In this document: positions 1 through 62,922 of the stretch, one piece after another
Layout of the letters: each line of letters begins with the position of its first letter
Numbering within the stretch: position 1 is the first letter of the stretch
From: Amoebophrya sp. A120
Taxonomy: Eukaryota; Protista; Dinoflagellata
Assembly: GCA_905178155.1 (NCBI GenBank)
Contig: CAJINV010000004.1
Span: forward strand, 1,000,629 to 1,064,628
DNA length: 64,000 nucleotides
Direction: 5' to 3'
Notes under the pieces: generated by a model
Seen by the model: the letters and a program-made list of their open reading frames with translations, nothing else
The model's database searches: none
Told to the model about the DNA's origin: nothing
Made by a program: the position numbers and the translations under genes

Positions 1-3000
1 CGCCCTTGCTCCAATGAGACGTTCTCGTCTGGGTACAAAACCTTGTCGATCAGCTCCTGCGAAAAGGTATACTTGGAAGAACTCGTCGTCGACGCCGGAT
101 CCGCCACAGCCGCGAGCATTTGCGACGGCAACAGCTGCTGCAACTGCTTTTTCAACACGGGAGCGATCTTTTCAGGTGCTGGAGGGATGAACGGATTTTG
201 AGTGGCTGCATTTTTCGCGGTTGTTGACTTTGACGGTGTGCTAGTAGAGTCCGCGGCATTTTCAAGTGGAGACACTTCTCCTTCTTCAACCTCGTCGTAG
301 TTTTCTTCCACAACCGCGACGCTTCCCAACGCCGCGCTGCGACAACAGCGGATGATCGTCTTCGCTGCGATCCTGATCGGCATCTGGTAGTACTGGGCCA
401 GCTTGTAGACGCCGCTTTTTGAAGAAATAGCACCACCTCCAGTCGTACTACTCGTCCCTTTCGTGGCCGCTGCAGAAGTTGTGGTCCCTCCAGTGGTGGC
501 GCCAGGATTTGTTTTCCGGACTCCCTGAAGTTCGATTCGCGGCGCCATCTCGGTCTGCAGCAGGTTGGAAAACCAAATACCGAATGCAAAAATGTCTGGG
601 TCTGGAAGACAATGCAGGTTTGTCACGCTTGTCTGGCATGACTCTCAAATCTGTGATGCATCAGCAGGAAAAGAGCCTCTTGCCTGTCATGCAAAAACGC
701 AGCTTGTCATGCGAAAAACGAAACACACAACAGCACAAAAAACTTGTCATGCTGGGCTGCATATTGCAGTGCGCCGAGCCACCATTCGCAAACTAGCATC
801 ACAAGTTTCCAGACCCAGACACTTTTGCAATGCATACCAAAGCTGCAGCTGCAACGAGTACAGGCGTTGGCTTTCCACAATCCTCTGAAGATGGAGCTGA
901 TTATAATTTTCCTCTCGTTCAGTAGGCAGATGTTCATGTTCTGAAGCTGACATTTGTGCTGCCGTTAGAAATGCATCATTCAAAACGGCGTCGTCGTGTA
1001 TCCAGTCAAGAGGCGAAATGCCGACCACCTCCTGTCCGTTGTCCAGGTTGCAGCTGCTGCGCTCGGTTTTCTGCAAATCGTGTTCGGATAAAGACTGCAA
1101 CATAGTTTTCAAAAACAGTGCTTGTTGTGATTCAGATTCTAATCGATGCTCGACACCTACTTCGCTCTTCGTTCTTGTTGTACCCATGCCGTCCAGTAGT
1201 TGTTCTCCTGTCAAAGCAGTAGCTCGTGTAGTCGCGGCCCCAGCAGCACCTCCGTGCACAAAACGACCCAAGTGGTTCTTGCCACTACACCGTGCCCACA
1301 AAAAGTTTCCCGGCTTGAAGGTAAATGGCTGGACAGCGCTGAAAAAAGGACGTGGAGGTGGTTCGGAGGACTTATTGTTGCGGCCCTGTTCAAGACCTCC
1401 AGCAGGTCTATTTCGTTCTTTCTCGTCCTCTATTCTGTTTCTCTCCCCGACGCATGATCCCGACCCAGGCAGCAGCTGCAGGAGCTGCCCAATTCGTGAA
1501 GAAGATGTTGTTCCACGGCCGGCCAAATGCTGCATCATGCTGTGTCGGTGTTTCATCCTGCGGTCCATAGGCTGCATGATTTCCTGCAGTGGGAAGTAGC
1601 AGACGCAACACAAAGCCACGAGAAAGACCGGGAAGCTGAGTTGCACAAAGAGACTGGACTTCGTGCCGCGGAGGAACAGGTAGAGCCGGCGCTTGACGAG
1701 AGTTTTTAACAGCTTGAAGGTCCGCAAGTACCGCCGCAAGCGTGGGCTGCGAGTAAAAATCATCGTGAAAAAATTATTAGTGTTCCAGCAGGCAGAGATG
1801 AAATTAAATCGTGGCCACAACCTGCTACGGTGTCGCTGTTGGTGCTGACCATAGTCAATTATATCGGCAAGATTTCTTCCTCCAGCATCACGCTGCGAAG
1901 ATGAAGAAGTCCTCACAGTATGCTCCGTTCTTGTATGAAGATCGTCTTCAGCTTCCGCATCCGCCCGCATGGAGCCCGCCAAGTCGGCGACTGGAAGTTG
2001 TAGCTGCGCCGCAAAAGATTGAAGAGACGTCGCTGGAATCGTAGTCGTGACTCCTGGAGCTAAAATAGCGTTGCCTCTTCCGGCGCTAGAAGAAGCTCCT
2101 CCTGCCCCGCGAAGACCATCCTCTCCGTCTCTTGTGCACAGTTTCAAAAAGACCTGCTCCAAATTGCAGGTCTGCAGGCTGGCTGTTTTCAACACCAAAA
2201 ACCTCCGTGTCTTGGAAATCTGCTGTAGACTGTGCATGCCTTTCAGGATTTTTGCCACCAGGCCATTGTCAAAATTGAAAAACTGGACCGACATCTTATT
2301 GTTGGAAGTAGAACTCGTCCGGCTTGTTCCCCTTTGGTGTTTTTGCTTCTTGTTTCGATTATTTCCTGTCGCGGTTTCCATTTTCTCGGGCGATTTGTTT
2401 GGTGACGAAACGTCTACGTCACCGCCGGAACGACGAGTTTTGGTCGCAAACGACTCCTCGGAGTCTGCTTCAGCTTCCGTAATATCTCCACGAGGTGATC
2501 TTCTTGGCGATGATTCATCTGATGTATCATTTGTAGTCGTGGTGCTGCTTCGTTCTAGCAAGCGGTACAGGATCTCGATGGAGCTCGTCATCGTGATGTA
2601 GTCCTCTCCACTGGGAATTACTGGGTTCAAAGTCAAGCAATTTTTAGAGCTTTCGCTTATGTATCCACCACCGCGCGAAGCCCCCGAAGGCAAAGTCATA
2701 CCACGACCCCGCCGCGGCTCCGCCAACGCACCAACAACGAACTTCGGCCTTTTGCTTTTAGTACTTGACGTAGTTGACGCCGGTTCTTTGGCTGTACCTA
2801 GAACTTCATCTTCGACGCCTACGTGGTCCATTTCGCGCACGTCTTCTTGCTGCCTCACGACCCCTTCGAGCACCATGCTTCCGCTGCTGCTAGAGGATTC
2901 CAAAACCGGGGTCCCTCCCGGGTCATCGAAAGAAGTCTTCCGTCTTTCTTGGGTCGCCTTGGCTGAAGCGCAATGGCCTTCCGCGCTTTCATTCGGAAGA

Positions 3001-6000
3001 TCATGTTGACGAGGTTCAAACGGCCCCGCCGCATTGTTCATCTGTGAAGCGCTGTTAAAGCTGCTAGTGATGTCAACCACAACATTTGCATTTTTTTTTC
3101 GCGCCCGCAGCTTTGTGCAAGCGTACGTGATAGTGATCAACACGGTGTCCGCATCCACCTCCTTCACGACCCTCTCGAAAGAGTGCTGCAGTTTCCTTCT
3201 TGTATTCATATTGGCACGACACCCGGACGCGCCTGCTTTACTACCAGGAGCACCCGCTGCTCCCAGATGAATCCCGCTGCTCGTCGTTGTGGTCGTTGGG
3301 CTCTTGGTCGCTCTTCTGCTGGTTGCGGGCGACGAACTGCGGGAGGTAGAAGTCGCCGTGTTACTGCAACTATCCACGGACAGGAGAGACGACTTCCTCG
3401 ACGCCGCAGCTACAGAAGTTCTGACGCAGTTCCGAAACAACTGACTGGGCGGTAGATTTTCCGCCAGAGGCTCCGCTTCCTCCGCCGTTTCGAATAGGAG
3501 ATCCTCGTGCAGCTGCTCAACACGTCGACTACTTTCGTCGAATGAGGAGGAGGAACTCATGTTACCGTTTGATGCAGGAACTACATCAACGTCGGAAGCA
3601 GCGGCTCCTGCTGCTGGTCCCATCGTCGTAGTACCATCCGCATCTTGCGTGCCGTTCTTGTCGTCTGGTGATGATGGTGGAGGAGCTTCTCTACTTCTAG
3701 AACTACCACACATCAAGTGGGTTGGGGTCTCCCCGGTTGTCGCCGCGGCTAAAAGAGTGTCCATGTACAGTTTATTGTCAGGATCTACAACAACTTCTTT
3801 ATTCTCTGGCAATTGTTGTTCTCCTTGTAGTTCTCCACGAGCCTTATGTTGCGGGGACGACGACGCAGATGAACGATGCTCTCCTGGATGTCGTAAAAGT
3901 TGTGCAGGACCCCCTTCCAACTGCACCTCCGCTCCTGGGCTACAAAGTTCATCTTGTAGACCTCCTTCTACAACATGTTCATCATCTGCTGCTGCTTCTG
4001 CTTCTGCGGCTTCAAATTTTGCCATTTTCTTCTCCATTTCCTTCATCAGGGTGTACTTGTATCCACAAAAAAAGGCCCGCCACCCCCATCCAATTTGTCA
4101 TCGCAAAACATGCATAAACTCTAGTGTCGTGTGTCATGCGAAAAATTGATCATGGGGATGGGTGTTTTGTCCTGGATAACTTGACCGCGGACTCCACTAC
4201 TCGCTTTGTCTCGTTCAGAATCAAAAAGGGGTTCTGCCGCGGGAACTTTTTGTCTTCCTCGAACACGTACTCAAACGAATTTGTGAGCCCGTTCTGGTGG
4301 AAATCCTCCAAGTAAAGATCCACGATCTCCTGGTTGATGTTGATTATGCTTTTCGAAGAAGAAGAAGAAGAAGAAAAGGCCGTTTTATTTTTCGTGTAGT
4401 CCTTCGATGAGTGTTGCTGTTGACGGTCTTGTTCTTGCCCTTCTTTTGATTTTGTTTCATCCGATGTAGTGTTGTTAGTAAGACCTCCTTCTGCATCATC
4501 TTCACGGTCGCCCGCAGCTGAAAAAGAAGAGGAAGCTGCAACGTTGCCCACTGTCTGACTGAAAACAAAGGCAGCATCAGGCGCTGCTTTCTGAAGATCA
4601 GTACTAGCATGATCAGCTGCACCAGCCTCTGCCTCCACTCCACCCACTCTCTCATGCTGGTCGCCCGGGCTAGCGCTAAACTCGGATGCGATTTCAGACT
4701 CGGATGCGACTGGGGCGAGTAAGCAGGAGCGAGGGGAGGATCTATTTCTTGAGCCCCCGCCGTCGATTCGTGCAGCCTGCTCCGGTCCTCGCAGCATATG
4801 CATGCGTCAGGATCGAAATCGACAAAATGATCAAAAAACTTGTGATGCATAAAATCTAGGGCACTGAAGGCCTGTACTGGGGAGCAGGCCAATGAAAGCG
4901 ATTGCGCGCCTGTTTAGGGGTATGCGATGCGCTGCCAGAGTAGCACGACAGGAGCAATCTTCTTTGCCCAAACAGCATGACAGACTGGATTTTGGTGCTG
5001 CCGAAATTTGTCATGCGCCACCTGGAAACTGAGGCTCCGACCGCCATCGATTTTGTGCATCACAAATTTTGCGACTTTGTCGATTTTAATCCTGACACCC
5101 TCATATCGCAGCAATCGTTCGTAGTACGCGGAATTTTCCTCGTATTCCAGGACGAGCTCTATGGCGTTCTCAACTGTTACATTCTCAACTGTTACATGAA
5201 TTTGTAATGCAAGACTAGCGCAGGCGAGAGGGACAACCTTGCGCGTCTTGCATTACAGGTTTCGTGCAGATCATAGTGCTGCTACTTAGCCCTCCGAGAA
5301 TTTGTCATGCGCAGCAGCTCGATCGTCTGGTGAGTCATGGTCATTTTGCATGACAAATCATGTAACAGTTGAGAATGTAACGTTTGAGAACGGCATAAGC
5401 TCGTAACCGCAGTTATGCTGCCGCTTGAGGAAGTCCGCGCTCCCTTCGGCCTTCACCTCTCCCCCGAAGGACATAATCGCGATGTTGTCCCCAAGGGCCT
5501 CGGCCTCGTCAAGAAAGTGCGTCGTGAAGAAAATGGTCCGGTGTTCCTTCATTTTCCGCAGAAACTCCCAAAGTTGGCGCCGGGTGAACGGATCCAGCCC
5601 GCTGGAGGGCTCGTCCAACACCACAAAAACCGGGTCCCCGACGAAGGCCAATCCGATCGACAACCGGCGCTGCATATCCTGTGCAAAAGTATCGCACTCG
5701 AATTGCATGCATTACAAGTCTTGTTCTTAAGGTGAATCAGCATTACAACTGGAACGATAGAAGAAGTGTGTTCATGTTTTGTAATTACAAATTTTCTTTG
5801 CCATGCTGAGGAAATTTGTAATGCATTTATACGCGTACGATACTTTTGCAGTGCATACTGCATCCCGCCGGACAGATTTTTCACTAATGTGTGTCGCTTA
5901 TCCAGCAAATTCAGTTTCTGCAGCATGGTGGTGACGTACTTCCGTTCGCGGATTTTCCGCGCGCGAAGCTCCTCTGAACGCGAGGTCTTGACGTTCAGTG

Positions 6001-9000
6001 TCAAGGCGATCCAGGACAAATTATTGTCCTCGTGGTCCTGCTCTTCGTCCTCATTCTCGTCAGCCACTGCTTCCGGCTCTTGTTCCGCTGCAGATAGCAC
6101 GCGAGGAGCTGGTGTCGTGCCACGAGGATTTGCTGTTGATGTAGTCCGTTGGCCTATTTGTTCTTCTACTGCATTAATGTTCATCTCGCGTGAAGACGCA
6201 ACATGTTGTACTCGATGTGGAACTGCATCTGCCGCGTCTGCAACTACATCATCATGATCTCCAAATAAACTACTATCCTCTCCATCCCGAACAGCATGAT
6301 CTCGGTCCTCCAAAATCTCATCTTCGTCGGCCTCTTCTGACGAGGCTGGAATTTCGAAATTACGCAGTTTCATGAACAGCAAGAAGTGTTCTTCCACGGT
6401 TAAGTACTCGTACAACGCGTTCTCCTGCGGACAAAACCCGATCATCTGCTTCCGCCTCCCCTCCTCAACTGTGTGCCCGTAGATCCGCACGTAAGACCCC
6501 GGAAGAATAAGACCACCTCGTCCACCAAGTGATGAAGAAGTAGCGGCTGATGTAGTAGTTCCGGCGGTCGCAGCGCCTCGTCTACCCCGGCGGGGTCCGC
6601 TCCGTGTAGTCCTAGTCCTCGCAGGGGCCGGGGCAGAAGTAGATATTCTCGTACTACTTGCGGCACTGTAGTCCTCACTTGTTCTCCTATATTGAAGATC
6701 AGAAGTAGGAGAAGAGCGATGCTGCTGCGGTTCTAGTTCTGGCTCCTCTGCTTCGTCCGAGGAAACTGATTCTATTTCGTCCCTCGCTGGTGTCGCAGCG
6801 TCCTCGTTGTCGTACTGTCTCAAATGCCCGGTCAAAACCTTCATGCAGGTACTCTTCCCCGCACCGTTGGGGCCGAGCAGGCAGAAAATTTGGTTACGCT
6901 GCATCCTCAGATTCGTGCCCGCGGAAAGAGCGTAAAAGGCGTCGCCGAATTTCACGCGCAGATTTTCCACAACCACCGCAGGCTGGTGTAGTTGGTGTTG
7001 GGCGAGGGGGTCAATGTCGTCGTCGTGCAACATTTCTACTTCAGAAGCGGCTTCGAAATCATGTGGCTCAGCGTGGTCGACGTCCCCACCGTCTGCCACA
7101 GCTTCCTCTGTTTGGCCCGGCGGATTATTATAGTGACTTCTCTGCGCACCACCAGCCCCGGTCGTCCACCTTCGTGAGGAAAAAGAAGTACTAACTGCGC
7201 CACCACCACGCTCGGAACGTCTACCGCGTCTCCTGGTCGTTGGAACCAGTAGCCCAGTCGTTCTGCTCCTAGAACTTCTTCTACTCCGACGTCGACGCTC
7301 ACGCTGTGTCACCTCCCAACAAAACTGCAGCAAGGCCACCAGGCACCGCAAAACGGGCTTCAGACAGCGCTTGAGCAGCAGATTCGGAACAAAACGGCAG
7401 ATCCGCGTGGTCCACCGCCGGTTTGGGGCTGGGCGTCGGGTGATTCTGTTCCGTGAAGCTGAGGAAAAATCACCTTCGACTTCTTCGTCTTCGTCCAAGA
7501 AAGCTTGGGAACTACCGCGCATCGCCGAGGATCCCATGGATGTTCTTGTTCCCGATAATGTGCTAGAAGTAGCACCATGATGTTCTTCTGAGGCTAACCC
7601 ATTGTTGCCATTGCGTCGTGCTGTCCGGCAGAAACACAGCAAGTTGACGCAGTACCAGAAGCGCCTCGCCAAATCCTGCTTCGCCTTAACCAGAGTAAAG
7701 GACGTGGAGTCCACTAAATACCAAACCGCGAGCAGCAAGACCAACGACTTCAGCAGGGGAGTAAGTGGGTCCTGGTTCATCGGCGATCGGCTGCACGGGT
7801 AGCCGAAGGAGTTGAGAGTAGTCTCGAGCAAGAAACTCATGTAGGCTTCGTGAAATGCCCGGACCGGGAGCGTGAGCAGCAAAAGAAAGCTCCGTTCTAC
7901 GGTGAGGATGAAAGAATAGAAAGGGGACGTCGACGTTGTCCCGTCTTGGGCAACATTCAGCTGAAATAAACCATAGTACCCAGCTGCAGCAGTGCTGCTG
8001 CTGGCTGCCGCTCCTCCGTTGTTGTCTGCAGTCCCGATACCCCCTTGCCAGAAGTACACCTGCAGTGCGTGCCAGAGGAAAGGGACCCCGAAGAGAATGC
8101 AGCTTGCCGTCGACGCAGTGGCGGGCTTGGAGAAGAAGCTGCTCCAAATGTATAACAGTGCACAACTCCCCCTCTCCCTCGTTTGTCATGCAAAATCCCA
8201 AATCCACCCGCTACCTTGTGGCACTCTTTGCATGACAGATTCTTGGAGCCCAATAAACAGTACTACACTAGGCACATGAATTGAATTTGTCATGCAGAGG
8301 CCCCACGCGTGCTGGTGTTTGTGTTGCTGTTCATGCCATACAAACGAGGGGGAGTGGGAGTTGTGGTGCACTCTCATAAAATGTGCGCAAAAACCATTAC
8401 CGTGGCGGAAAAGAAGAACGAAGAGGAAAACAGCTGTGCTACGACGGCGAGATTCTGGAGGAAAATCGAGGACCCACTACTAGGTGGTGCCACGAACAAG
8501 ACCCAGCCGAGCGCGACGGCAGTGCTGAAGCAGAAACAGCTGATACAGATCAAAGCGATGCTGTGCAGGAAAAAGGACAAATCCGAAACCCCGATGGTGC
8601 GCATGGTTTCTCGCATTTGCTTTTCGACGATCTGTCCGTTCACCGTCAGGAAAAAGGGGATGAAAAGCGGAAGGAGGTTGATATCCACAAAAAAACAACC
8701 ATGATCCCCATCCAATTTGTCATGCAAAACATATATGAAGTCCTGTGTTTGTCATGCAGAAAATGGATATAAGATGGTCATGGTTGTTTTTTCCTGGAAG
8801 ATAGATCACACAGAGGAAGCCCAGCTCCACTTCCTTCTCGAGCTTGTAGGGATTCACGTACAGGGAACGCAGGGAATTATCAAATGTAAAAATGTCTGGG
8901 TCTGGAAAAATCCAACTTGTCATGCTAAATCTGAATCATGTAAAAATCTGTGTTGCATGATTACCAAAAGCTCCCCACTTTTGACCTAATCGAGAGGCAG

Positions 9001-10579
9001 TTTCTCATGCAGGATAGGCATTAGAAAGGTCTCGCAATATTTGTCATGCTATGTCCTACATACCAGACCTCATGAGTCATGGGAAACCTGCATGACAAGT
9101 CAGGCACTCTTCCAGACCCAGACATTTTTACACTTGATAGGAATTCGTGATTTGCAACTCGGGGAAGGGCACGAAGCTGACAGGAAGAGAATTTGCGCTC
9201 CTAGAAGTTGCTCGAAGACCGCCGGCTGCAACAACGACCAGTTCTGATATCCCCTCTGCCACCGACCGCAATTCGAGAATCGGCTTCATTTTCTCTCGAA
9301 AAAAACGCACGCACGGGCTGAACCTGGCGGCGTCGTAAGAGGCTGCAGTGCCTGGACTACTTGCACGAGGACTTTGGCTTCTCAGTCTTCCTCCGACTCC
9401 GCAGCCCGAGTAGTCCGTGGACACAAAAACACTGTCGTTGTCTTCATCGGCCAGCCGGATTTTTGTGTAGTAGTGGTCCTCCGTATGTTGATTATTATAT
9501 CCGGGCCGCTCCAGGTCGTAGTTCCTGTTATACAACAACTCGTCCACATGTTGATGATGAGAACTAAGGGCATCATACAGATCCTGGTCGCTGGTTCTCT
9601 TCAGAGCTCGAATGTACAGGGACACAACTAAATTCTCCGCAGCATGATCATCTTCACGACGTCCTTTTTTTGCGCCAGCGTCAGGAGATGAGGTCAACAT
9701 AGAAGACTTTGCCGCGGTCTTCATTCCCGGCGACGAGTCCTCGGGTATAGAAGTGCCTCCACGAAACTCGATTTTTATCACCCCGCACAGGTCACGTGGC
9801 TTGAAGCGGCTGTAGCCGCCGGTTCTTACTACAGTGCGTTCTTTTGAAGAGAGAAGATCATCCTCTGCAGGAGCAGCGGTCTTTGCAACGATCTTCGCAG
9901 TTGTAGTTGAAGCACCACCACCGGTTGCCGCGTCAACATCGGTCGTCGTAACCTCGACCCGAAAAAGCGTGGAGGCGCCGAATCGAACCAGAGCGGCCTT
10001 TTTCTTGCCCGTCGGGCCTTTGGTGGGCGGATGTCGTATGGTCGTCGTGGCAAAAGTAGTGCTGGCTTTCGAAAATTCAAAAGGTCGTCCAGAAACCGCG
10101 TCCACGATTTGGCTCCAGGTTTCGTCGTCCGTAATAACACCGACAGAAGTGCAGACTCTGCTACTTGGAAACGAGTCCCGCATCCCCAATTGGACACCTC
10201 CAACAAGCATCTCCTGGTTATAAGAATTCTCGTTGCCATCAAGGAGTAGAGGCCCAACCTTGCCGGCCAGGTCGCCCAACACACCGCTGAAAGAGGGAAG
10301 AACAAACCTCGGGACGAACGTAGAGGGAGCTGTTTCATCCGTACGAGGGCCGCGTGTCGTTCGCCCATTATACGAAGCATTTTCCCTTTCCGTTCCTCCA
10401 TTTTCCGTGTACAAACTGGTCTGATAGCCCCCAAAAAACAAGTACGAGAACAGGCAAACTAGCAACGGCGCCGCGAGGTATTCGACGAAGGTTTTCGTTT
10501 GGTGCCGCTTCTGGTAACGGCGGGTTTTCCACAATAGACCGCCGACCTGGGCGTATAAGAGCGGCGGGAAGAGCTGCAT
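1..10579 (-). CDS. ABCA-subfamily ABC transporter (multi-exon, runs off the left edge)
   Basis: N-terminus [15 protein letters not shown]; Walker [12 protein letters not shown]; [18 protein letters not shown]; signature LSGGMQ|[31 protein letters not shown]; [13 protein letters not shown]; second TMD start [14 protein letters not shown]. The ORF pieces join in frame after removing 8 TIR elements, and the frame stays open to position 1. Confidence 0.93.
578..836. mobile_element. Introner-like TIR element, family A
   Basis: TIR tgcaaaaatgtctgggtctggaa / ttccagacccagacacttttgca; direct repeat ccaaa (573-577, 837-841); removal gives LW|FSNLLQ. Confidence 0.92.
4060..4178. mobile_element. Introner-like TIR element, family D
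   Basis: tatcca...tggata ends; direct repeat acttg; removal joins AVK|YTLMKE. Confidence 0.88.
4797..5105. mobile_element. Introner-like TIR element, family F (8-bp direct repeat)
   Basis: TIR gtcaggatcgaaatcgacaaa / tttgtcgattttaatcctgac; direct repeat tcgcagca (4789-4796, 5106-5113); removal gives ERLLR|GPEQ. Confidence 0.9.
5160..5397. mobile_element. Introner-like TIR element, family B
   Basis: TIR tatggcgttctcaactgttacattctcaactgttacatga; direct repeat agctc; removal gives CGYEL|VLEY. Confidence 0.93.
5675..5857. mobile_element. Introner-like TIR element, family C
   Basis: TIR tgcaaaagtatcg / cgatacttttgca; direct repeat ctgca; splits the ABC signature LSGGMQ|RRLSIG. Confidence 0.93.
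8151..8378. mobile_element. Introner-like TIR element, family E
   Basis: TIR agtgcacaactccccctctccctcgtttg / caaacgagggggagtgggagttgtggtgcact; direct repeat aaatg; removal gives AHI|WSSFFSKP. Confidence 0.9.
8682..8803. mobile_element. Introner-like TIR element, family D (degenerate right end)
   Basis: Similar to 4060-4178; aaaaaacaaccatga / tcatggttgtttttt inverted repeat; probable join LCVI|NLLPLF; exact ends uncertain. Confidence 0.75.
8878..9139. mobile_element. Introner-like TIR element, family A (A2 interior)
   Basis: Family A TIR; direct repeat ggaat; removal gives ITNS|LRSLY; interior resembles 30438-30698. Confidence 0.92.
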
Positions 10580-20600: not shown

Positions 20601-21446
20601 AAAGCTAAAAAGCATGACCAACACCAAGGCGGGACCGTCGAACAGGAACAAGGACGGACTGGCAGCCGCTCACGCTCAGAAAATCAAAAAAAAAAACTGA
20701 TAAAAAGCGCTCGTCCATACCTTGCTTCCTCCCTCATGGCCCCGCTCATGGAAGGATGTAAATCAATAAGTAGTTTTTGAGAGATGCAATCGGAATCTTT
20801 TGTAGTTTTGCCACTCGTCGTGGGGGTCCATGCGCATTCAGTCATGTTCATCGCCCCAACATCGCTATCACGCACGACATCCTGTTCTTTCGTTTTGTTT
20901 CTGTAGCCCTCCTACTGATGTGGTTGTGGTCCTCTCCGTGAAACTTATAGTTCTTCAGCTTCGCAAACCTGCAGTTGCCGCGAAAAGATCAAAAACTAGC
21001 TTCCTGACAAGAAAAACAAAGAGGACGAAGTCTACTTCTTCCCGTTGATTCAACATCAGGAGCGGGCCGCGAGGCAATCCCCGAACACGAGAACGCCTGA
21101 GCTGAGCAGACAGCTACAATCTGACCATGCGTCAACTGGACAAGGAAGTGAATAATTAATGGCGCATCATCTTTATGATTGTAAAAAGGGGGGTCCTACG
21201 CCGAGGCTGTTACATTGTTGCACGGATGTCTGTGACTGCTCTTGTTAACTTAACATTGAAAGAAAAGATATGCGTGTTGAAAGAAACAAATAAGTAGGTG
21301 CAACCGACGCCAAAGAAGCAAGAAGGTGAAGCACAGGTGGGAAGGCATCGTCGAAAAAGTAGAAAGGCCATTGCTTATGCTTAAGATAGAAAACGGAATA
21401 AGAAAAAAAATACGTACAAGAGGAGTTCGTTGGAATGACAACGATC
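17630..21446. repeat. Tandem array of three ~1.3-kb units
   Basis: Unit 1 (~17630-18939) and unit 2 (18940-20165) look identical at an offset of 1299; unit 3 (~20167-21446) is diverged. Each begins with tcgtgtagtagttgtacccgtggcatgaagtt. Confidence 0.95.
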
Positions 21447-51500: not shown

Positions 51501-54500
51501 TGCTGAAGACTGACTTTATTCTCTGTCATAGAGTGCGACGGAACGAGGAGCTGCAGCTTCTGCTTTTTGTTCCTGGTCTTCATATGGTCGTTATTTGGGT
51601 CGTTTGCGTTATTTCCATTTTGGGTTTGCCTGATGGTAGTACCAGCATTGTTCCTGTTCTTGCTTTTACTCGACGCCGGCCCTTTCTGTTTGTTTCGGGC
51701 AACAGGACCACGTTCTTGCACGCCGACCATATTTTTCTCCTCCTCTCCCGCCCTCGGTTTGATTTCCTTCATCAAACTAAAAGTATTGTCCCAGGGCGGC
51801 CGGTCCGTGATGCGGTTGGCCGTGATCGCCGAGAAGGCCTTTTTCATCGGCTTTCCTCCGGAAGATGTTGGATCAAAATCATCACCGTGGTCGTGGTCCT
51901 CACCAGCTGCGCTAGAATTATCCGCCTCCAGCCGCCACCTCGCATCAAGCACTGTCCGCTTTTTCTGATTCGCGAGCCGCGTTTCCAAGGGCAGCTTCGA
52001 GGGGGAGTATGAATTGCAAATAAAGTAACGCTGTACTAGTATAAATTGCAATACAAATTGGCTCAGCATTACAAATTGAATTTGTCATGCGGATTTGCCT
52101 TAGGAACTAGATTTGTCATGCATAAATGCAAAAATTAGTACGAGTACGATACTTTTGCACATGATAGGGAGGACTCCTTGCGGATGTCCGGCGTGTCCAG
52201 CGGCGAGGGCTGAAAGTGGGAAAACAGGTTCTGGAAGTTCCAGTCCGGAGGGCGGGGCGTGGTAGGGGAGATTTCTAATTCTAGGTGTTTAGTGTTTATT
52301 TCGTCATGCTGTAGCTGGCCCCTCTTGCTTATTCCCGGCGGCGACGGGGGAAGTGAGGGAGACCTGGAAGGTGACCGAGAACGAGACTTCGCCTCCACAA
52401 GCGTCGCGACTCTCAGGAGCTGGTGGTCCCACGTGTTTGGCTGTTAGTGTCATCAGTTTTGGAAATTTCAAGTCTCATCTACGAGATGGTGAACTTCTTC
52501 GTCGAAACATGATCATCATCACGATCCAAGAATTGTACTTCTGACAGACTCTGCATACATCAACATCCCTTAGAAGATTCCTCTAGACCCTCTTGTTATG
52601 TTTAGATGTAGAAAGCAGCTGAGTGCTATCCGTTGTACGTACCTCCTCTCCTCCAGCTTCCGCACTTTCCAATTTTCTTGCCGCTAGCGAATCGCGCCGC
52701 GCCGGCGCCTTACTGGATGAAGATGATGAAAAACTCGGCCCGGCTGGAACGGTGCTCGCTGATGTAGTAGGCGGTTTCTGCGTGCTAGCAGTGCTCTGGT
52801 GACCACTTTTCGGTAGTTTCGCCGACTGCGGTCGCGTAGAAGATGTAGTAGCTCCACTACTCTTTGTTCCTCCACCTCCACGCCTTTCAAACACTTCCTG
52901 GGACCTGCGCCGCATCTCCAACAGGCGCTCCTCTTCGCTCTGTTTCCTGGTACTAATCCTGATCGTGGTCGCTTCTTGCTCTGCATCATTTGCACCCTCT
53001 TGCTCTTGTTCCGTATCATCATCAAACACTTTTCGCACGGATTTTCTCCTCTCCTGCACCGTTTCGTGGTGCTGTTCAATATCCTGCGCAAAGGTAAAAG
53101 TATCGCACCCGTAGAAGTACTTGCAATCGAATCATGCATGACGAGTCTAACTTTGTGCCCGATCTAGCACGACAAATTGCGTTTTTTTGTTCTAGCAACA
53201 ATTTATGCTAAATGCAACTCATACTCGTACTAGTACTACCACTAAGTGCGATACTTCTTTTGCAAAAATGCATATTCCATCTGCGCGTAAAGTTTCCGTG
53301 CGTTGTCCAAGACACCTTCCAACTCCTCTCTCGTCTCGTCATCCAGTTCGATCTTCTTCCCAAGCGCCTTGCACCGCTCCAGCAGACTGTGTATCACCGG
53401 CGGGTCAGAGCGTTGCGGCTTAAACTCGGAATCGGACTCCTCGGGTGGGGCGGGTCGTTCTTTTTGTTGATCCCGATCCGTAGGAGGTTCTTGCTGCTCG
53501 TGCACCACTGGAGCTGCATCAGCAGCAATCTCAACAGCTGGAACGTGCTGGCTCACTTCTTGCGAAACAGGTCCTTGCTCGTCCATGATTTCCATGGCAG
53601 CTTCTTCCTGCGGTCCTACAGCACCAACTTCTACCTCGGAAGCTCCTGCTGCTCCACGCGGCTCCTCCTGGTCTTCTTCCTCCGCAGCTTCGTGATGACC
53701 GGCACCGCCTGCTTCCGGTGTCTGCGGTTCATTTTCATCAAGATTCATCTCGTCCGCCCCCTCAGCAGTTACTGGCACAGGCCGCTCCTCTTCAGGGCTG
53801 ACGACGTCTTTTTGCACGTTGTACAAATCTTCTGCGTTTTTGCCACCGCCTTTATTTATTTCCGCAGCCCCATGATCCGTCGGGGAGGCGAAGGGCAGGT
53901 CCTTCAGCGTTTTACTGGCTTGCCCTAGATCATCAACAACTCCGCTGCTGGAGTATGTTTTGTCATCGTTCTTGTCGTTGACATCGTCGCGGCTTTTGCT
54001 GTTCATCTCTACTTCCAAACTAATTTCTCCTCCTTCTCCATCTCCATTTCCTCTACCTCCATCATGTCCTTGCTCCTCCGTCACCACGCTGATCGACTTG
54101 GAAGCTGCAAGCTGATCCTGCTCTGAACCACTGTAGTTTTTGTTCTCTTCCTGTTTGTTGTTCTCGTCCTGATTTATTGTTCTCACCGCCAGCGAAGCCG
54201 CCACGTCATACAGAATGCCGTTGACGAAAGAGGAGGAGATCGCGTCTTCGGCGTTTATTGGGTTTTGTACTCCTGCATCAAGAGGTCGTTGATCTTTGCT
54301 TGCTGTTTCCACTTTTTGATTTCGATTAGCTTCAGCTTCATGTTCATCACCAGCCGCATCACTTGTTCCGTGAAGATCCATCCCTCCCGCATCGACATCA
54401 TCTTGATCTTCTTGCTTTCGTTCGTCCGCCTCTCCTGCCTGGTAGAAAGTGAACGGATGTGAATGATGTGAATGTTTCAGCGTAGTGCGCACTAATGGAT

Positions 54501-57500
54501 CTTGCGAAGGATCTACGACCTCGTCGTCGACCACTTCAGAAGATGTGGGCTGTCGCTGCCCCTGTAAAGATTCTGCACCGACAGGGAGAACCTCGCGCTG
54601 CGTAATTTCCATGTTCATTTCCACTTCCACAACTCCATTGTGCGAACTGGAAGTGCAGCTTTCCTCAAACAATTGCTCCTCCTCCCCCGCAAACCCCTCC
54701 TCATGCGGCGACGCCAAGCGCGTCCCGGCCGACGCAGACGTGAAGTCGTCTTCCGCCGCCGTGTTGTGCACTTCAAGCTCGTTGTTGGTCTCGTTTAACA
54801 GATTATTGTCGTCTAGTTCTTCATCCTCAATTGTTTCTTGACCTGCAACTACCGCAGCAGCGTCCACAAGATTGGAGAGAAGACTACTGCCGCTTGATGT
54901 ATTGGAATTGCCACGCTGTCGGTTGTGCAGATGAGCTTCTTCTTCATCGCATTGTACTAGTGTTCTTGCCCGTGCACCACGACCGTGGCTGTCGTCTAGT
55001 CTCTCGTCTTGATGCGCATTGATACTAGACGCACTTGCCTCCTGCTGTCTCATCAAATTGTAATTCGCGGCGGAGCTGGCTGTGGCACTGCTGCTCTCTT
55101 CATCCCCGAGTACTGCGCCGTTGTCACTACCTGAGTCAGCGGCCTCCACTCCATCTACCTCGTCCTGCGGCAGTGGCGGCGTCCGGGGAGTGGAGAATGT
55201 ACTGGTAGCAGGATGAAAACCCTCATATCTGGAGTCCGTGCCGGGAGCAACAATTCCTTCTACTCTAGTAGGATTATTATCATCCGCCGGCGTGCTGGTC
55301 TGCGACAGAACGACTTCTCTGCTGCCATCATGATTCTCGTCCACGACCTCGCAGCTCGACCCGCCCAACAGCGACTCGTTGGCGGTGCCCGAATGGGAGT
55401 GCGAATTACTGTCCACATTCGCGGAGCCCGTGTGCGAGTGGGTAGCGCCGAGGAGGCGCGCGTTGGAGCTGGAATTGTGTAGCGAAGAATTGTCGGAGGA
55501 CGCTACCCGGAAGGAGGAAGAGCTCGAGGAAGAAGAGTTACTGCTCTTCACCCCCTCGCTTTCTCCACTTTTACTCAACTGTTCTTCTTCTACATTATCG
55601 CGTCCTCCTCCAGGCGCGCCTCCATCTGCGCCTGCCTCCGAGAATGAACTTTGACTTTCTTCGCAAGAGGAATTTACCTTCGACATCGACGCTAGAAAAT
55701 GCTGGCCTTCCCGACAGTCATTTACCTGGTGGCGGACCATCCAGTCGTATGCAAGAAAAAAACTGTGTAAGTGTAACTCCGTGTTGCAGACGTTGCAATA
55801 CAGTTACACTTGTCATGCTGGATGTGCATCAGAGCCTATTTTCATGCGTGTTTTCGCGTACCAGCTACGCATGACAGGTTTTCTCTGTCATGCAAAACAA
55901 ATCTGTGATGCTGTTCCTGCAAGAAAGTTACACTTACACACTTTTTTCCTTGGATAAGTCGCGGCTGGGCACTATTACCACCTCGTCGAACCCCTGGGGC
56001 GCTCTGTACACAACCGTGCAGGTATCAAATGCAAAAATGTCTGGGTCTGGAAGATTCTGAGACTTGTCATGCATGTTTTGCATTGGCCAGCATGTCTGTG
56101 ATGCATGCCCTAGCATCACAGATTTTTTGAAGGCTTCGCGATGCCTATTCCGCATGACAAATGGAAATGCCCTCTCCGCGTAGCAAAAATTGCATTCCCT
56201 TTGCTGCTCATGCAATACAGATTTTTTTGGAATCCAAATTCAGCATCACAAGTTGCATTCTTCCAGACCCAGACATTTCTACCTTTGATAGCAGGATTTT
56301 TTCAGCAACTCTTTCTCGAACCTAGGGATCGGGACCGAGAGTTCGGGCTTGTTTTCTCGATCTTTTGACGTCGCGGATTTATTGTTCCTGCCGCCCTCTT
56401 TTGACTTCTTCTTTGTCACTGCCGAGGTGGTGTTGGCTCTCTGCAACGTCGAGGACCCGCTTCTTTGACGATTTGCAGCTACTACCTCTGCATCGGAGGA
56501 GGAAGAGTTTTTATTTATTCCATCAGTCGCATGGGTTGCAGCTCCAAGGGTTTTCGATCTCCGAACCGGTCTGGAGGTAGATGCTGCTGCATGATCCACG
56601 GGATGAAGTAAATCTTCCGGACAGGAGCCCCCGCCGGCCCCGCTTTGCTCCGCGGAATAAACAAGCTCCTGGCCAGCAGCAGAGTTTTTGCTCTGCTGTG
56701 TAGCAGCTTCTGAAGTAGAGGTTGGCTGAGACGAAGAGGACGAAGATTCCATTTCGGACGAAGACTGGTCTTCGCTTCTCGCGTCTTCACCCCGCCCATC
56801 GATTATGGTATAATGATCTACACCGCCAGCACGACGAGCTGCCGTTCTTGTTCCCCCCTGTTTAGAAGGCAGCTTCACATGACTCAGAAACCGGTCCACT
56901 TCGCTCTCGTCGCGGTAATGCTTCAGCAACCCAAGTTCCAGCCCGCTGGCATACTTCGGGTGCCCGGCGTTCGCGGAGGCGAGAAAGCTGCTGGAGGACG
57001 ACTTTATCACGCCGGGCAAAAGCCGAGTGGATGCGCCGGTTCCTGCGGCAGTTACAGAAGAACTCCCGTTCATCTGCAAGAACGTCGGTCCAGCCGGCTG
57101 ATATCAAGTGCAAAAATGTCTGGGTCTGGAAGAATGCATGTTTGTCATGCTCGTCTGGCATGTCTTTAAATCTGTCATGCACGTTACCCAAGAGAGCCAT
57201 TTTTCTGTGGTGCAGGAACGCAGTTTGTCATGCAGAATAGACAACACCTAGAAGCTCAGAAACTTGTCATGCTGAGCCAGCAGCATTTGTGGCCTCATCA
57301 TGAGACGCCACCCAGCATCACAAGTTTCCAGACCCAGACATTTTTACATTTGATAGCTGATGCTGGTCGACGATAACTTTCTTCCGCAATTCCAGGCTGT
57401 TCCCTGCAGCGAGTATCGATTCGTCGTAGACAATGTGGTCTTTGTCCCCGTCTGGGCTGTTGAGAACCACCTGGATACCCCGCGGAGACATCTCAGAACA

Positions 57501-60500
57501 GATCGCTCCTGGTTGGTTCGAACGAGAACAACCGAGCAAGTTGCTATGATTTAGAGCTTTAACACCCGTTAGCATGAGAAGTGGCGAGTTTGTAGTGAAT
57601 TTTGCATGACAAATAGCAGAGGAGACTGCCGGGACATTGTCCCTTTTGCTCTTCTGGGAAGTGGGTTCTGCACACCGCAGAAGTTGTCCAGGCTTATGCG
57701 GCGGGCAGCTGGACATGGCCTGGGCGTCATTCTTTGGCCATGTCTTTTCGTCTTCCTGTGCTTGCAAAAGAGCAAGCACTGCAGCAGCCGCGGCAAAGAC
57801 GCCAAAAACAAGAGCCGCGAAGCACATAAGTGCAGTTTAGGCAAGATGAGGGCGCGGAAGCAAAGGTGAAAGGACCCGGCCGAGAGCTTTGACGCGTCTA
57901 TCCGGCAGGCGCGTGAACTCTCCAGGCCTTATCGGCAGAATATAGAGGCGCTAAGGGCAACAGCGGGCGCCTGTCTTTTCCCCTCGGCCCCACTTCCCAG
58001 GGTCTACTTGTGCGTTTTTTTGAGCACTTTTCTGCGCTAAACTTTGCTTATCACGGTCGAAAAGTGGCGCTCGGTGAATTTTGGGGTGAATTTTGGAAAG
58101 GACGCCGGTGAATTTTGTCCTCCGGCTCTTGTTCAAAATGCGCTGGCGCATGAGAAACTCCGGGTTTTGGGGCTTCCAGAAAGTGTCGCAAAAACAAAAA
58201 GCCTTAAAATTCACCAAGGGAATTCTTGGCCTGGGGGTCACGTCGAATAAGACTTGCTCCGGAGGCAAAAAACACCTGGGGAGTTGTAAGCCGAGCACAG
58301 CAGGCGAAGCAAACTAGTGCCCGCGGCCGAGTCGTGCCTTCCCTTCCACCCGAGGCTACTCCCAGATATCCAATTCCAAACCACAACTCGCGAGAGCGTG
58401 CGCGTTGTACTCGTGCCCCTGTGTTCAGGCGTCGCCCTCCCTTTCGACCATTTCGGAGAGGAACTTCTGAGGTGAGCGCGCAGATGAACAAGAGCCCCAC
58501 GATCCACCTTCTTTGGTTATGCACTACACGGTCCGGCGGGCCCCGTAAGACCGCTTCTTTCGGTGCTGCAAGTGCCACCTGGCACCGAGCAGCCCTTCAC
58601 GCTGCGTGAGCTGCTTGGGATCGTGTCCAGCCCTTTACCACGCAGCGCACTTCTCTTTTGAAGTAAATGCAAGTCATGCAAGACAAATTCACTGCAAATT
58701 CACCCCTCTTATGCTAACGAGCGTCCAAGGCATAAGTTATGATCTTTTCCGTGATGGGTAGAAGTTTTCTTCAATTTTTTCCGGAACTTCCGCTCTTCCT
58801 TTTGCTGCTGGCGGATCTCGCGCGCCGCCTTCCGTCGTTCTTGATTGTAGGCCGAGGAAGACCCGCCGGAATCGTCTTCTAGTGTCGCGCATCAAATGCA
58901 AATATGTCTGGGTCTGGAAGGGTGTAAACTTGTCATGCAGATTTTCATTTTCCATGACCCATGAGGTCAGGAATGCGGAATTTAGCATAACAGACTCTGC
59001 GAGGTGGTCTCTGCCACTGCCATGCCTATCCTGCATGAGAAGCTCCCTCCCAACTTGGTCGAAAGTGGAAAGCTACTTTTGGCACTCATGCAACACAGAT
59101 TTTTGTATGCTTCAGATTTACCATGACAAGTTACCACCTTCCCGACCCAGACATATTTGCAATGCATATCGCGTCGGCAGAAAAGAGGTACTTGAACGAA
59201 ACCGCGTACTCTGTTTTGTTCTCTTCGTTTTCGTTCTCTTCGTTGCTGCTTCCGTGGTAGTTATATGCATTGCAAATATGATGTCTGCATCTGGAACTTG
59301 TGATGCAAGGAAGGGAATAATGAGCACGCTGTAATGCGCTGCCCAGCATGACAAGTTCTTCCGTGGTTCTGGGTTGCGTCATCATCATCATCATCATGTA
59401 GTGGACACTCGCTCCCAGCGCCACAGGTCAAGGATCCCCTCCCCGGGGGGTGGGCGAGGAAGCACTTTCGGCGACCTCAACATACAAAAGCCGAGCGCTA
59501 CCACGGCAAGTCGCCCCAATACAAGTGCCAACCAGTCGGGAGCTACCCACCACACCTGATCAGCACAGCCCGGCCAGCTAGCCGAGCGCGACAGCCCAAC
59601 ATACAGAACGATCCAGGACCCGACCCATTTTACGCCATAAGTTTTTGTTCTCACGGAAGAGACGACGTACCCCTTTGGGCTAAGGGGCGAGACTCTCCCT
59701 TAAGCCGCAACCCCACCCGGACAGGGGAGGCTGGACCATTTGTGCCTTACCTGCGGCACGGACGAAAAAGGCAAGTGCCGCGGACCACAGATGTCAAACC
59801 ATTGGCCAGTTGTTTGTCACTGCTGACTGGCAACCCACCTGGGGCACAGTGACAACTTAAAGGTTTAGTTTGTGCGTGGCAGTCTTAGTGCAACTACTTG
59901 ACTTATTCTGCAACAGAAGCAAAGGGGGAGAGGGGGGGCGGGGGTCTTACGCCAGAGTCGCGACGGGACTTACCTGAACGTAGGGTGCCTGGCAATCCCC
60001 TACTAACCCCATAACCCTTGCGCGCCCGTAACTTCGTCTTCGTCAGCACCGCGGCCAGGAATTTCGACACACCATTTCCAGCATGGCGGCCGCCGTTTGT
60101 ACGAAGTCCCACACGCAACTCCGTGGCCAGAAAGTCCGATACGAATCTTTCACGCCATGTCCATGGCGGCGGTAAGACTGCGCGTCGTGCCTGGTTAGCT
60201 CGTGATAGTCGTGCTGGAGTTGCTCGTGGTAGTCGTGCTGGTGTGCTGCAGTTGCTCGTGGTAGTCGTGCTGGTGTGCTGCAGTTGCTCGTGGTAGTCGT
60301 GCTGGTTAGCGTGACAGCAACTTGAGTGTACTACATAGCGCGGTAGTTCCGAGTCTGGTCGTCGTCGGTGTCCGCACGTTGTTGCCGTTCCTCCGAGTAA
60401 AAGCATGGTCATCTCGATTCGATGGCTGGCACTCCTGATAGTGCTGCTTGACGAGGCCTTGTACAAACGCCGCACCTCCGTGTAGGACACGAGCAGCAAC

Positions 60501-62922
60501 AGAACATACGGCGCTCCGAATGGACCAACAAGTACTACATTTGACCGAGAAGAAAAAGCGCGTCCGTCGCGTAACTTGAACGGCATTTCCGAGCGGAGAG
60601 AACGCGCTCCGAGAACACACCGAGAGCGACATGCGCATCAACCAGTCTCCCGGTACAGACTGCTTATCGATTATCCGGGTAGAGAACACTCTTCAACAAT
60701 CCTCGTCCTGGGTTGGCGCGAGGACGGACAGCACGTGGCGAGAGCCGCGCGCCGCCCTTCCTCCATCTTTATTCCGCTTTTGCATGAGAAACTGCGTTTT
60801 TGCATGACAGGCAAAAGGGGCCCTTCGCGGCCACGCAATACAGAGTCCAACGTCATACCAGACTAGCATGACAAAATTCGAAATCTTCCTGACCCAGACA
60901 TATTTGCAGTTGATAAGTTATCGTGTTGAGGTACTACTACACCAATTTTTCCCCCCGAGGAACTACTGGAGGACTTCGTTCGCTGGTGATTCATCGCTCC
61001 TACGGAGAACGAATCCGGCTCCTGTTCGGCCAAGGCAAATCCACCTGCTAGTGGTGATTTTTGCCCGCTACAACTCTTCGGACTTTGACTGCGTTCCCGG
61101 ATCTTGTGGAATTTTTCCGCGGATTTTGACACTGCCATAGCGAGTTTGATTTCCGCCATGATGTCCTTTTCTCGCCCCTCTTTTACCTCTCTCAAAAGCA
61201 TCTCCGCCATCTCCGGATCCTCTTCCGTATTGAAATCCGGGTACGCGTGACGCAGCATGCGGAGCGACTCGAGTTCTGCCAGGCGCTCCTTTTTCTTTTG
61301 CTCCGCTTCTTTTCTCCTCTTTTCCTCCTCGAGTTCTCTCACTTTTTCCTCGATCCTTTGCTCCACTTTCACCAACTGCTCTTCCAATAACCGCATCTGC
61401 CCTTCCAAGACTCTCGTCTCTTCCCCCTCTTTCTGCTGCGTATTCGCCTCCAGCAAAATGGCGGCTTTTTCCTTCTCGGAAACCAAAGTGCGCGGATCCT
61501 GGGAGTGCAGCGTGTTGGTCTTCTTGCCCCCTGCTGGTAGATCTTCCTGATCTCCAGAAGATTTGTTCTTATTCCCGTGCTATCAAACGTAAAAATGTCT
61601 GGGTCTGGAAGAATGCATGTTTGTCATGCTTGTCGGGCATGACCATTAAATCTGTCATGCACGTCGCCCAAGAGCCGCATTTTTCTGTCATGCGGAGACG
61701 CAATTTGTCATGCAGAATAGGCAACACCTACAAGCTCAGAAATTTGTCATGCTGAGCCAGCACTTGTAGCCTCCTCATGCTACGCTACTCAGCATCACGA
61801 GTTTCCAGACCCAGACATTTTTACGGTTGATACGTGCCCTTTCTGCGGAGAAAAGTAGAACTCGGAAAGGCGTTTCGCTTCGCGACCGGGGGAAAAAGAT
61901 TTGAAAAGCTGCTGGTTTAGCTCGTTGCTCGGATTTTTTGCAGGTTCACTCTTCTTGCTGGACAATAGTTGCGACTGCTGGTGCTGGAGCTGCAACTGCC
62001 GCTGCAATACGTCGAGTTGTGCTGCTTGCTGCTGCTCTACAACTTCCTTCACTGACACTGTGCTACTTCCCTTACAGCTGTTCGCTCTCGTCCTTCTTGT
62101 TACAGGTGACACGCTAGAGCTCGGCCTCTGCGGAAGTAGAGCATCTACTTCAGCCGGCTCCTTATTCCTCCTACTAAACGGCGACGGCGGATATTGGTCA
62201 ATGTTGTCCATTTGCCGCTGAATCTCCTGAATTCGCTGCTGCCGTCTGGAGTCAGTGATATCCACAATTTGCAGCGCTTGGTTCATTATGTTCGTCCCAT
62301 TGGACGTGGAGCCGTTGTTTGTGGTTGCAGCGGCCATGTTGCTTCCGTTTGAACCAGCAGCACCCGCCCTCGACTTACTCGCATTTTTCTGCAAAATAGC
62401 AGCTCCTGCAGCGGAGGAACTGCTACCCTTGCTGCCATTTCTGCTCTTAGAGGGAGGGTTCCTCGTCGCGGAGCTTCCTCTTCCGGCTGCTGCACCGGTC
62501 GTCGTCGTTCCGTTGTTCATCTTCGAGCTCGATCTACTCCTTACAACCGCTCCCGCAGACGCCGGGCGCTGCTTCATTTTCGCTCCGGCAAGGAGCGAAG
62601 ATCCTCGGTCTTTCGCGCTCTCCTCCCAGGTTCTGGCCAGTTTCTCCGGACTTGGGTTGAACGGCGGGAGTCGGACCTGTTCATTGCCTTGCTGCGCAGG
62701 TTGTACGGCACCCCCCGACGGATCTGCTTTGTTGGCCTTTTTCCCCAAATGGATCTGCCCGCCGGACGAAGTCGGCACCCTCGGCCCGGCGGATCGCGGA
62801 CGGAACTTTTTCACATTCTGCTGCAGCACATTCGCCTGCCACTCTGCCTCCGCCTGTCTCTTTTTCCCGGCCAGCCAAATCTCGTGGTCGCACGCCACGT
62901 CCCACGCCGTGCGGGCCGGCAT
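48515..62922 (-). CDS. Giant (~2,900 aa) low-complexity protein with repeated RPxSA motifs, function unknown
   Basis: Frame traced from MPARTAWDVAC (62922) to PDVFWDFR* (48515) through 13 TIR elements and one inferred GT-AG intron (~52441-52588). It could instead be two genes split at 52583. Confidence 0.7.
48734..48968. mobile_element. Introner-like TIR element, family B
   Basis: Direct repeat gcgtc. Confidence 0.93.
49314..49545. mobile_element. Introner-like TIR element, family B
   Basis: Flanks agcgg/atcgg. Confidence 0.88.
50416..50679. mobile_element. Introner-like TIR element, family A
   Basis: Direct repeat cccag. Confidence 0.92.
50721..50962. mobile_element. Introner-like TIR element, family B
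   Basis: Direct repeat cggat; only 41 bp separate it from the previous element. Confidence 0.92.
52008..52166. mobile_element. Introner-like TIR element, family C (reverse orientation)
   Basis: Direct repeat gggag; removal gives KESS|PSKLP. Confidence 0.85.
53080..53274. mobile_element. Introner-like TIR element, family C (degenerate)
   Basis: Flanks ttcaa/ttcca; removal gives QME|QHHET. Confidence 0.82.
55748..55956. mobile_element. Introner-like TIR element, family H
   Basis: TIR aaaaaactgtgtaagtgtaact / agttacacttacacactttttt; direct repeat agtcg; removal gives PSRD|WMVRH. Confidence 0.9.
56023..56290. mobile_element. Introner-like TIR element, family A
   Basis: Direct repeat gcagg; interior resembles 50416-50679. 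Confidence 0.92.
57102..57355. mobile_element. Introner-like TIR element, family A
   Basis: Direct repeat gctga; interior resembles 61581-61832 and 578-836. Confidence 0.92.
57545..58734. mobile_element. Long (~1.19 kb) degenerate TIR element acting as an intron-like insertion
   Basis: cgttagcatgagaagtggcgagtttgtagtgaattttgcatgac is inverted as gtcatgcaagacaaattcactgcaaattcacccctcttatgctaacg; flanking exons join GKDHN|LLGCS; exact ends uncertain. Confidence 0.7.
58890..59168. mobile_element. Introner-like TIR element, family A (A2, reverse orientation)
   Basis: Direct repeat tcgcg; left end is CAT instead of TAT; interior is the reverse complement of the 30438-30698 type. Confidence 0.9.
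59363..60756. mobile_element. Nested insertion of unknown class (possibly a non-autonomous retroelement)
   Basis: Flanked by cttcc (59358-59362, 60757-60761); (cat)n tract near the left end; no TIR seen. Confidence 0.6.
60199..60305. repeat. Minisatellite (~33-bp unit gttgctcgtggtagtcgtgctggtgtgctgca)
   Basis: 3-4 copies visible directly. Confidence 0.85.
61581..61832. mobile_element. Introner-like TIR element, family A
   Basis: Direct repeat cgtgc; removal gives KGH|GNKNK. Confidence 0.92.

Follow-up and report, generated by a model that had tools for sequence, protein, structure and literature searches.

The window analysed here, a 64,000-nucleotide (nt) stretch of the dinoflagellate Amoebophrya sp. 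A120 (contig CAJINV010000004.1, positions 1,000,629 to 1,064,628, assembly GCA_905178155.1), contains 33 elements of the form TAT...ATA that together occupy 10.6 kb. All but two of them carry exact copies of one word, TGTnATGC or its complement GCATnACA, and this motif is a real, conserved cis-element common to the element families. The introner elements of A120 have been described as non-canonical introns of ~240 nt with inverted repeats made of TAT, seven variable bases and at least three A, with direct repeats of 3-5 nt or 5 bp at the boundaries and splice sites starting NT (PMC7789003, PMC12130899). The length, the TAT-N7-A repeats, the 5-bp duplications and the NT splice starts were all found in the window elements. 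The text covered of the two papers, figures not included, contains no shared internal motif or spacing rule.

Deletion of each element together with one copy of its duplication restores long minus-strand reading frames, among them one of 2,963 amino acids (aa) spanning eight elements and one of 3,020 aa spanning 13; the latter requires removal of the 1,190-bp "57.5-kb element" with six flanking nt. In all, 32 of the 33 elements lie within restored frames of at least 450 aa, and the 5-bp duplication is perfect in 24. Three of nine host frames gave a Pfam match (ABC_tran, 2OG-FeII_Oxy_3 and a weak PAN_4). Elements were sorted by their ends into types whose labels, A to J, are our own and may differ from the family letters of the first-pass annotation.

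Type A is represented at 578..836 (motif sites, with strand, 621+, 652+, 685+, 705+, 745+ and 796-; removal restores the open reading frame 3-10651), 8878..9139 (8918+, 8949+, 9003+, 9042+, 9090-), 30438..30698 (30509+, 30563+, 30602+, 30650-), 31142..31384 (31175+, 31252-, 31272-, 31306-, 31337-), 34433..34710 (34474+, 34505+, 34568+, 34610+, 34658- and a terminal match, 34436-), 50416..50679 (five sites), 56023..56290 (six), 57102..57355 (five), 58890..59168 (58931+, 59033-, 59090- and a terminal match), 59264..60915 (sites near both ends only, around a nested insertion of ~940 bp) and 61581..61832 (five). Type B comprises 5675..5857 (5709-, 5740-, 5817+), 13235..13369 (13278-, 13329+), 29352..29509 (29400-, 29448+, 29469+), 33277..33427 (33315-, 33346-, 33381+), 52008..52166 (four sites) and two old elements, 11924..12098 (12011+ and 12046+, both antisense) and 53080..53274 (two degenerate sense sites, 53136- and 53167-, 31 bp apart). 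Type C lies at 5160..5397 (5203+, 5250-, 5303+, 5348-), 32034..32269 (32077+, 32122-, 32172+, 32219-), 44703..44930, 48734..48968 and 50721..50962 (four sites each) and 49314..49545 (three). The remaining elements are of type D (4060..4178, with one exact site, 4132+, and a damaged second; 8682..8803, with 8718+ and 8750+, 32 bp apart), type E (55748..55956; 55811+, 55869-, 55886+, 55904+), type F (8151..8378, with 8184+, 8230-, 8288+ and 8320+, and an old copy at 21938..22220, with 22028-, 22097+ and 22168-) and type H (4797..5105; 4841+, 4975-, 5009+, 5057-), together with an old element of uncertain type and decayed ends (12250..12463; 12385+ and 12446+, antisense only), the 57.5-kb element (57545..58734) and the motif-free element G (15189..16313). 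In the 57.5-kb element, whose ends had been said to carry the motif, there is one exact copy (57604-), 32 bp from the first of three variant sites (57572-, 58148- and, near the right end, 58678-). Twenty-eight of the 33 elements came from scans that ignore the motif, while motif clusters guided the bounding of 8682, 11924, 21938 and 57545 and of the precise ends of 58890 (10 of the 98 exact matches within elements). Candidate pairs at 34-392, 3563-4055, 27346-27538, 54804-56217 and 33426-34710, cross-copy pairings and inner registers were discarded as chance or duplicates.

Precise removal of the elements from RNA was seen in contigs of runs X3, X4 and X6, which we infer to be RNA and which derive from two samples of one study. 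These contigs skip both canonical, motif-free GT-AG introns (12726..12968, where the cut may read 2 nt further right, and 52441..52642), and at ten or more joints they skip exactly one element plus 5 nt: 11918-12099, 12244-12464, 13229-13370, 44697-44931, 48728-48969, 49308-49546, 50410-50680, 50715-50963, 52002-52167 and 53074-53275. Three further removals are read from contig edges; these introns have non-GT-AG ends. RNA pieces resume at 60916, next to the element with the nested insertion, and end at 61575, before the last type A element. None of the three runs covers exons of the gene at 1-10651, so that its eight elements, both type D copies included, lie outside the RNA evidence, and raw RNA reads placed on the window number only 13 (X9) and 2 (X10), apparently from another strain. 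The two copies of the duplication are unlike each other at 11924, 49314 and 53080 (11919-12098, 49309-49545 and 53075-53274), and there the RNA retains the transcript-upstream copy; this puts the intron start at TAT or slightly before it, to within 1 nt for 11924 and 49314 and 3 nt for 53080, in agreement with the common splice sites beginning NT in the published A120 table (PMC7789003). Elements 11924 and 12250 are removed though their sites are antisense only, and 53080 is removed with its two degenerate sense sites.

Element G is 1,125 bp long; its inverted repeats measure 43 bp, its 5-bp duplication is perfect, and relaxing the threshold still yields no motif site in it. In three runs RNA contigs break off at 15183 and then run on for another 24 letters, and a neighbouring RNA contig ends at 15069; both edges are as expected of the joined form if a 30-letter overlap between contigs is assumed, while the DNA contig edge at 15075 fits only the filled site. 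From these contig edges G appears to be spliced out, and splicing does not appear to need the motif. G is a low-copy element with near-identical copies and a DNA depth of ~3-7 times single copy, carries a second internal inverted repeat (15312-15363/16138-16189), and may represent a recent family served by a different transposase. Just beyond it, position 16358 is C in one RNA contig (X4) and T in the window and DNA run X1, a difference compatible alike with editing, a paralogue or an error. The region ~17630-21400 consists of three tandem copies of a ~1.2-kb unit, each opening with the repeat that flanks G.

The first-pass annotation had described the motif as recurring several times per element on both strands and as looking rare in exons, and the counts bear this out. 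There are 57 TGTnATGC and 46 GCATnACA in the window, 103 exact matches spanning 652-61752 (with C as the variable base in 64, G in 21, A in 15 and T in 3), against a chance mean of 7.24 and a maximum of 15 in 100 shuffles. Ninety-eight lie inside the elements, where 2.8 are expected from shuffled elements and 3.3 from a second-order Markov model (the element shuffle is approximate, as it may end early; the Markov control and a separate shuffle give agreeing values), and the remaining 53.4 kb contain five, with 5.3 expected. At least one exact copy is present in 31 of the 33 elements, the exceptions being 53080-53274, with degenerate sites only, and G. The fuller profile, AAA-YY-TGT-V-ATGC-W, is pseudo-palindromic (TTG-N5-CA) and finds 1,330 sites in 316 elements, mostly three to six per element, the second sites frequently taking the forms TGTnTTGC or TCTCATGC. 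Its density is 16.9 sites/kb in element sequence compared with 0.84/kb in 87 noisily predicted GT-AG introns (74 without a match, 13 with one) and 0.35/kb elsewhere; the proposed enrichment over shuffled sequence and GT-AG introns was thus found.

A larger sample was provided by at least 158 further metagenome loci (374 kb merged), retrieved with the type A end and hence enriched for that type. A scan made without the motif called 286 elements in these loci and two in shuffled loci; the 286 contain 885 exact copies, where 24-31 are expected, and 280 carry at least one. TGTnATGC is the top-ranking gapped word of its shape in each of nine end types. The families nonetheless are not independent, because they have in common the TAT ends, the 5-bp duplication and mostly a TAT-N7-AAAA outer end (frequency of A 0.88-0.93 at positions 11-13 over the 286 elements, in a set rich in type A and with TAT forced by the scan), from which types C, F, H and G deviate, as well as a weak likeness in a two-site 31-bp module (0.366 versus 0.306 when shuffled). 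Their inner terminal repeats differ, and among 18 subfamily consensuses, which represent 265 of the 313 elements of at most 400 bp, only three of 134 cross-family pairs of motif-masked interiors align at z>=4. These comparisons point to one old superfamily with diverged interiors. The original description of the motif as family-independent therefore holds in that it is the top word in nine end types whose interiors rarely align, and fails in that their outermost ends are shared.

Within families, motif columns are conserved at 0.92-0.99, terminal repeats at 0.84-0.97 and other interior columns at 0.72-0.95. On trees of the 14 subfamilies with at least four copies, motif columns change at 0.24 of the rate of other interior columns on internal branches and 0.46 on terminal branches, as proposed for a shared cis-element; inner terminal repeats give 0.20 and 0.56, type A ends being inflated by the selection of loci. 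Constraint thus relaxes from internal to terminal branches, in the motif as in the inner terminal repeat. Motif changes are more numerous in copies whose duplications are damaged: between intact and mismatched duplications the value rises from 0.069 to 0.084-0.087 in the motif, from 0.057 to 0.086-0.089 in the terminal repeat and from 0.225 to 0.226-0.236 in the interior. The motif might instead be a neutral relic of one ancestor with repeated subterminal units and have no present function, for which the common TAT ends, the 5-bp duplication, the widespread TAT-N7-AAAA end and the 31-bp module likeness speak. Such a relic is very unlikely: it is already largely refuted by the contrast in conservation, with motif columns at 0.24-0.46 of the interior rate and kept like terminal repeats, while masked interiors barely align.

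The sites are placed symmetrically with respect to the element ends and at preferred distances. In none of the nine end types does an exact site begin within 25 nt of an end, and a site 36-50 nt from each end is nearly universal. Same-direction pairs 30-33 bp apart, or three helical turns, occur in 14 of 18 subfamilies and seven of nine end types (mean 3.4 subfamilies, maximum 10, in 2,000 random placements), so that the spacing analysis called for at the outset also proved positive. In five types the head-to-head pairs concentrate at 43-48, and in type E at 57. At a period of 10.5 bp, Rayleigh R is 0.46 for same-direction and 0.55 for head-to-head pairs, values reached in none of 3,000 random placements. 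The terminal 14 bp themselves resemble the motif in types A, B, C and E (scores 3, 4, -1 and -4 in register 1 versus about -9.5 when shuffled) and weakly in types I and J. Going inward from this terminal pseudo-site, the next site is 30-31, 38-42 or 53-54 bp away in 25 of 27 ends (family-level p=0.045), with 34 and 58 bp in the other two.

The modal spacing persists despite a strong pressure of +3 insertions. Among private insertions of at least 2 nt in element interiors (loci L001-L158 and the window), 100 of 140 are multiples of three (p=5e-20), compared with 3 of 17 deletions. The pattern XY-n-XY, in which 2 nt are duplicated and one random base is added, accounts for 66 of 78 three-nt insertions (27% expected), and among six-nt insertions 10 of 20 duplicate 5 or 6 nt; indels of 3 and 6 nt are common between tandem copies too (window 18941-21400). 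This bias suggests fill-in repair of staggered breaks, and the 5+1 class may represent excision footprints. The same bias could drive in-frame inflation of this organism's proteins.

Is the motif read in DNA or in RNA? An RNA splicing signal usable in both directions could take the form of a two-way branch point, an Rbfox-like site or stems between opposite copies, and a new splicing signal is made plausible by the failure to detect U1 small nuclear RNA (snRNA) in these genomes (PMC7789003). The branch point was tested because both strands contain TnAY, and almost every element offers a site 36-50 nt from each end; in 157 elements, however, the putative branch A near the 3' end was changed in 8 of 154 cases, no better kept than its mirror column (8/155) or the 5' end (7/151). 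The host strand was called for 196 elements by a classifier that errs on 3 of 29 called window elements (~10%). No orientation bias relative to the host gene was found in any of 18 subfamilies. Sense and antisense sites change alike (110/3501 versus 128/3445, p=0.21), as do 5'- and 3'-proximal sites (38/1331 versus 45/1334, p=0.50), and sites are antisense only in 17 elements and sense only in 14. End-proximal sites are better kept than middle ones (0.057 and 0.060 versus 0.090).

The other RNA-level possibilities fared no better. Motif bases are predicted to be paired more than other interior bases, which would fit stems, but folding did not discriminate, and in type I, whose five sites all point the same way, no pairing between motif copies is predicted. 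TGCATG can occur in the reverse of the n=C variant, and we take this to be a likeness to the Rbfox site UGCAUG and no more; the analogy drawn earlier goes no further, as TGCATG is present in only 269 of 1,330 sites, only on the strand opposite the TGT reading, and strand-specific constraint is absent. Predicted GT-AG introns show a small excess of sites over the remaining sequence (0.84 versus 0.35/kb), and one of them, 41472/41513-41593 (81 or 122 nt), has a strong site at 41536; its gene is short, SR protein-like by eye, and gave no Pfam match. Both RNA-confirmed GT-AG introns (445 nt together) have zero motif sites, motif-free G appears spliced, and sites in single-stranded RNA would not be expected to show spacing of a helical type. 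Tests of an RNA-level role were thus negative, and a two-way RNA signal is improbable. Since orientation, decay and placement are all symmetric about the ends, a DNA site is favoured over an RNA signal. The first-pass annotation had offered a transposase or a splicing factor as the reader of the motif; the tests favour the transposase, while the lack of strand or 5'/3' asymmetry and the splicing of antisense-only elements count against the splicing factor.

These data have led us to propose, with a probability of roughly 0.6, that the motif forms a subterminal docking array for a Ginger-like transposase that moves TAT...ATA miniature transposons. The motif would be bound in double-stranded DNA by a protein, most probably an integrase-like transposase of the Ginger/IS3EU type or a partner of it that binds DNA; this protein would occupy the degenerate copy in the terminal 14 bp plus two to seven internal copies three to five helical turns inward, and the array of bound copies would build a paired-end complex. 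Copies retaining sites and spacing would propagate, and the word would therefore survive while the spacers diverge; the families would share it because they descend from, and were likely moved by, one transposase lineage. Splicing would read only the element ends, with the donor at N|TAT and the acceptor 4-5 nt past ATA, both supplied in either orientation, and would leave the internal word unread. Because no such protein was found, we only infer the transposase-binding step.

Known systems offer partial parallels. Most A120 families are given as "TIR DNA / Unknown" (TIR, terminal inverted repeat) in the parts of the published table covered, and family 38, with "TA/TA termini, 5-bp TSD" (target-site duplication) and integrase-like reading frames, is classed as Ginger (PMC12130899). 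IS3EU and GingerRoot elements have in common with the window elements the TA..TA termini (PMC10045372, PMC12730594, PMC6839031), and the type C ends TATGG..CCATA match their TAYGG..CCRTA (PMC10045372, PMC12730594). They differ in making 6-bp duplications (PMC10045372, PMC12730594, PMC6839031), compared with 5 bp in the window elements; their integrase-like DDE transposase was not found in the 11 element and GC-rich frames scanned, a set with no autonomous copy. Transposases are known to bind subterminal repeats that reproduce a portion of the terminal repeat in Emigrant/Lemi1 (PMC1636448) and at piggyBac/piggyBat ends (PMC11707139); in both, short repeats resembling part of the terminal repeat lie inside both ends in mixed orientation, their arrangement mattering. 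In contrast to these arrays, one word here extends across nine end types with different inner repeats and fills whole elements of 110-320 bp, with a preference for 30-33 bp; the elements are introns, and binding is predicted. A description of the motif was not found in the literature text searched, figures not included (PMC11282704, PMC9860276, PMC4455052 and PMC11453091 among the sources), and a text search for TGTCATGC gave nothing on these elements among the matches listed. The motif is thus apparently an undescribed cis-feature of a known element class, and a variant of the subterminal repeat array.

Several observations weigh against the docking array. No Pfam family was found in 11 frames from the 57.5-kb element (four frames of 57545..58734), the 59.3-kb element and the 39-40.7 kb region, and viral contigs scanned with the type A and B end patterns gave no match. 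(A two-site pattern found 120 viral stretches, of which the 80 listed had a single match each; these are read as chance.) Farhat et al. found no transposase in A120, in the part of that paper covered, and argued against general mobilisation by transposases (PMC7789003). On terminal branches motif columns still evolve at 0.46 of the rate of the interior, the old copies 4797, 8682, 11924 and 21938 retain exact sites beside decayed duplications, and neither the branch data nor the duplication mismatches establish fully neutral decay of the motif after insertion. Types D, F and H show no terminal likeness to the motif; the spacers of 30-33 bp have no significant deficit of indels (ratio 0.82, p=0.22); and a period of ~16 bp fits same-direction pairs equally well (R 0.56) and tail-to-tail pairs better, so that helical phasing is suggested rather than proven. 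Young, multicopy and motif-free, G indicates that not every such element requires the motif to move; its removal from RNA rests on contig edges from two samples of one study, the joint being absent among the rows listed, and it may be polymorphic between cultures. The intronic site at 41536 belongs with these points.

Some of them would be explained if the motif bound a host DNA-binding protein instead, either a bending or chromatin factor aiding mobilisation or a DNA mark recruiting excision factors during transcription. All DNA-level results fit a host factor equally well, and it would account for the word being shared by elements whose inner terminal repeats differ, for the failure to detect a transposase and for the continued constraint on terminal branches; the TTG-N5-CA symmetry is also like that of sites for dimeric DNA-binding proteins, and we presume a likeness to C/EBP-ATF and Sox-Oct words. 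A general host-factor site, however, would not be expected at chance level outside the elements, the motif is similar to the terminal 14 bp, where a transposase has to bind, and the motif-free G appears spliced. We consider a host factor unlikely, though less so than an RNA signal or a relic.

Two features of the window stand apart from the arrays. The nested insertion at 59398-60337 has short inverted ends (TGTAGT...ACTACA), follows a CAT repeat and gave no Pfam match in four frames; a 188-bp piece of it, at 96% identity, lies inside another element in locus L033. The GC-rich block at ~39000-40700 (61-70% GC) is motif-free, and no terminal repeats, match in the loci or Pfam match were found for it.

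Amoebophrya genomes of the A120 type contain ~30,000 introner elements, for which neither a transposase nor a family-specific signal was found in the covered part of the published analysis (PMC7789003). The shared word and its spacing rule provide a bait for pull-down of the missing protein and a marker for old or autonomous copies, and the motif offers a clean mutational test separating signals for mobility from those for splicing; the splicing question thereby narrows to the element ends. A bolder proposal, which we regard as a long shot, is that a DNA-bound array on helically phased sites, made up of a host factor or a domesticated transposase, has a role in mobilisation and in addition marks some two-thirds of the non-canonical introns, recruiting U1-less splicing during transcription. 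It predicts the observed strand symmetry; the one motif-free element, G, is the main point against it. If the protein did also recruit splicing, the intron would in this organism be defined on DNA.

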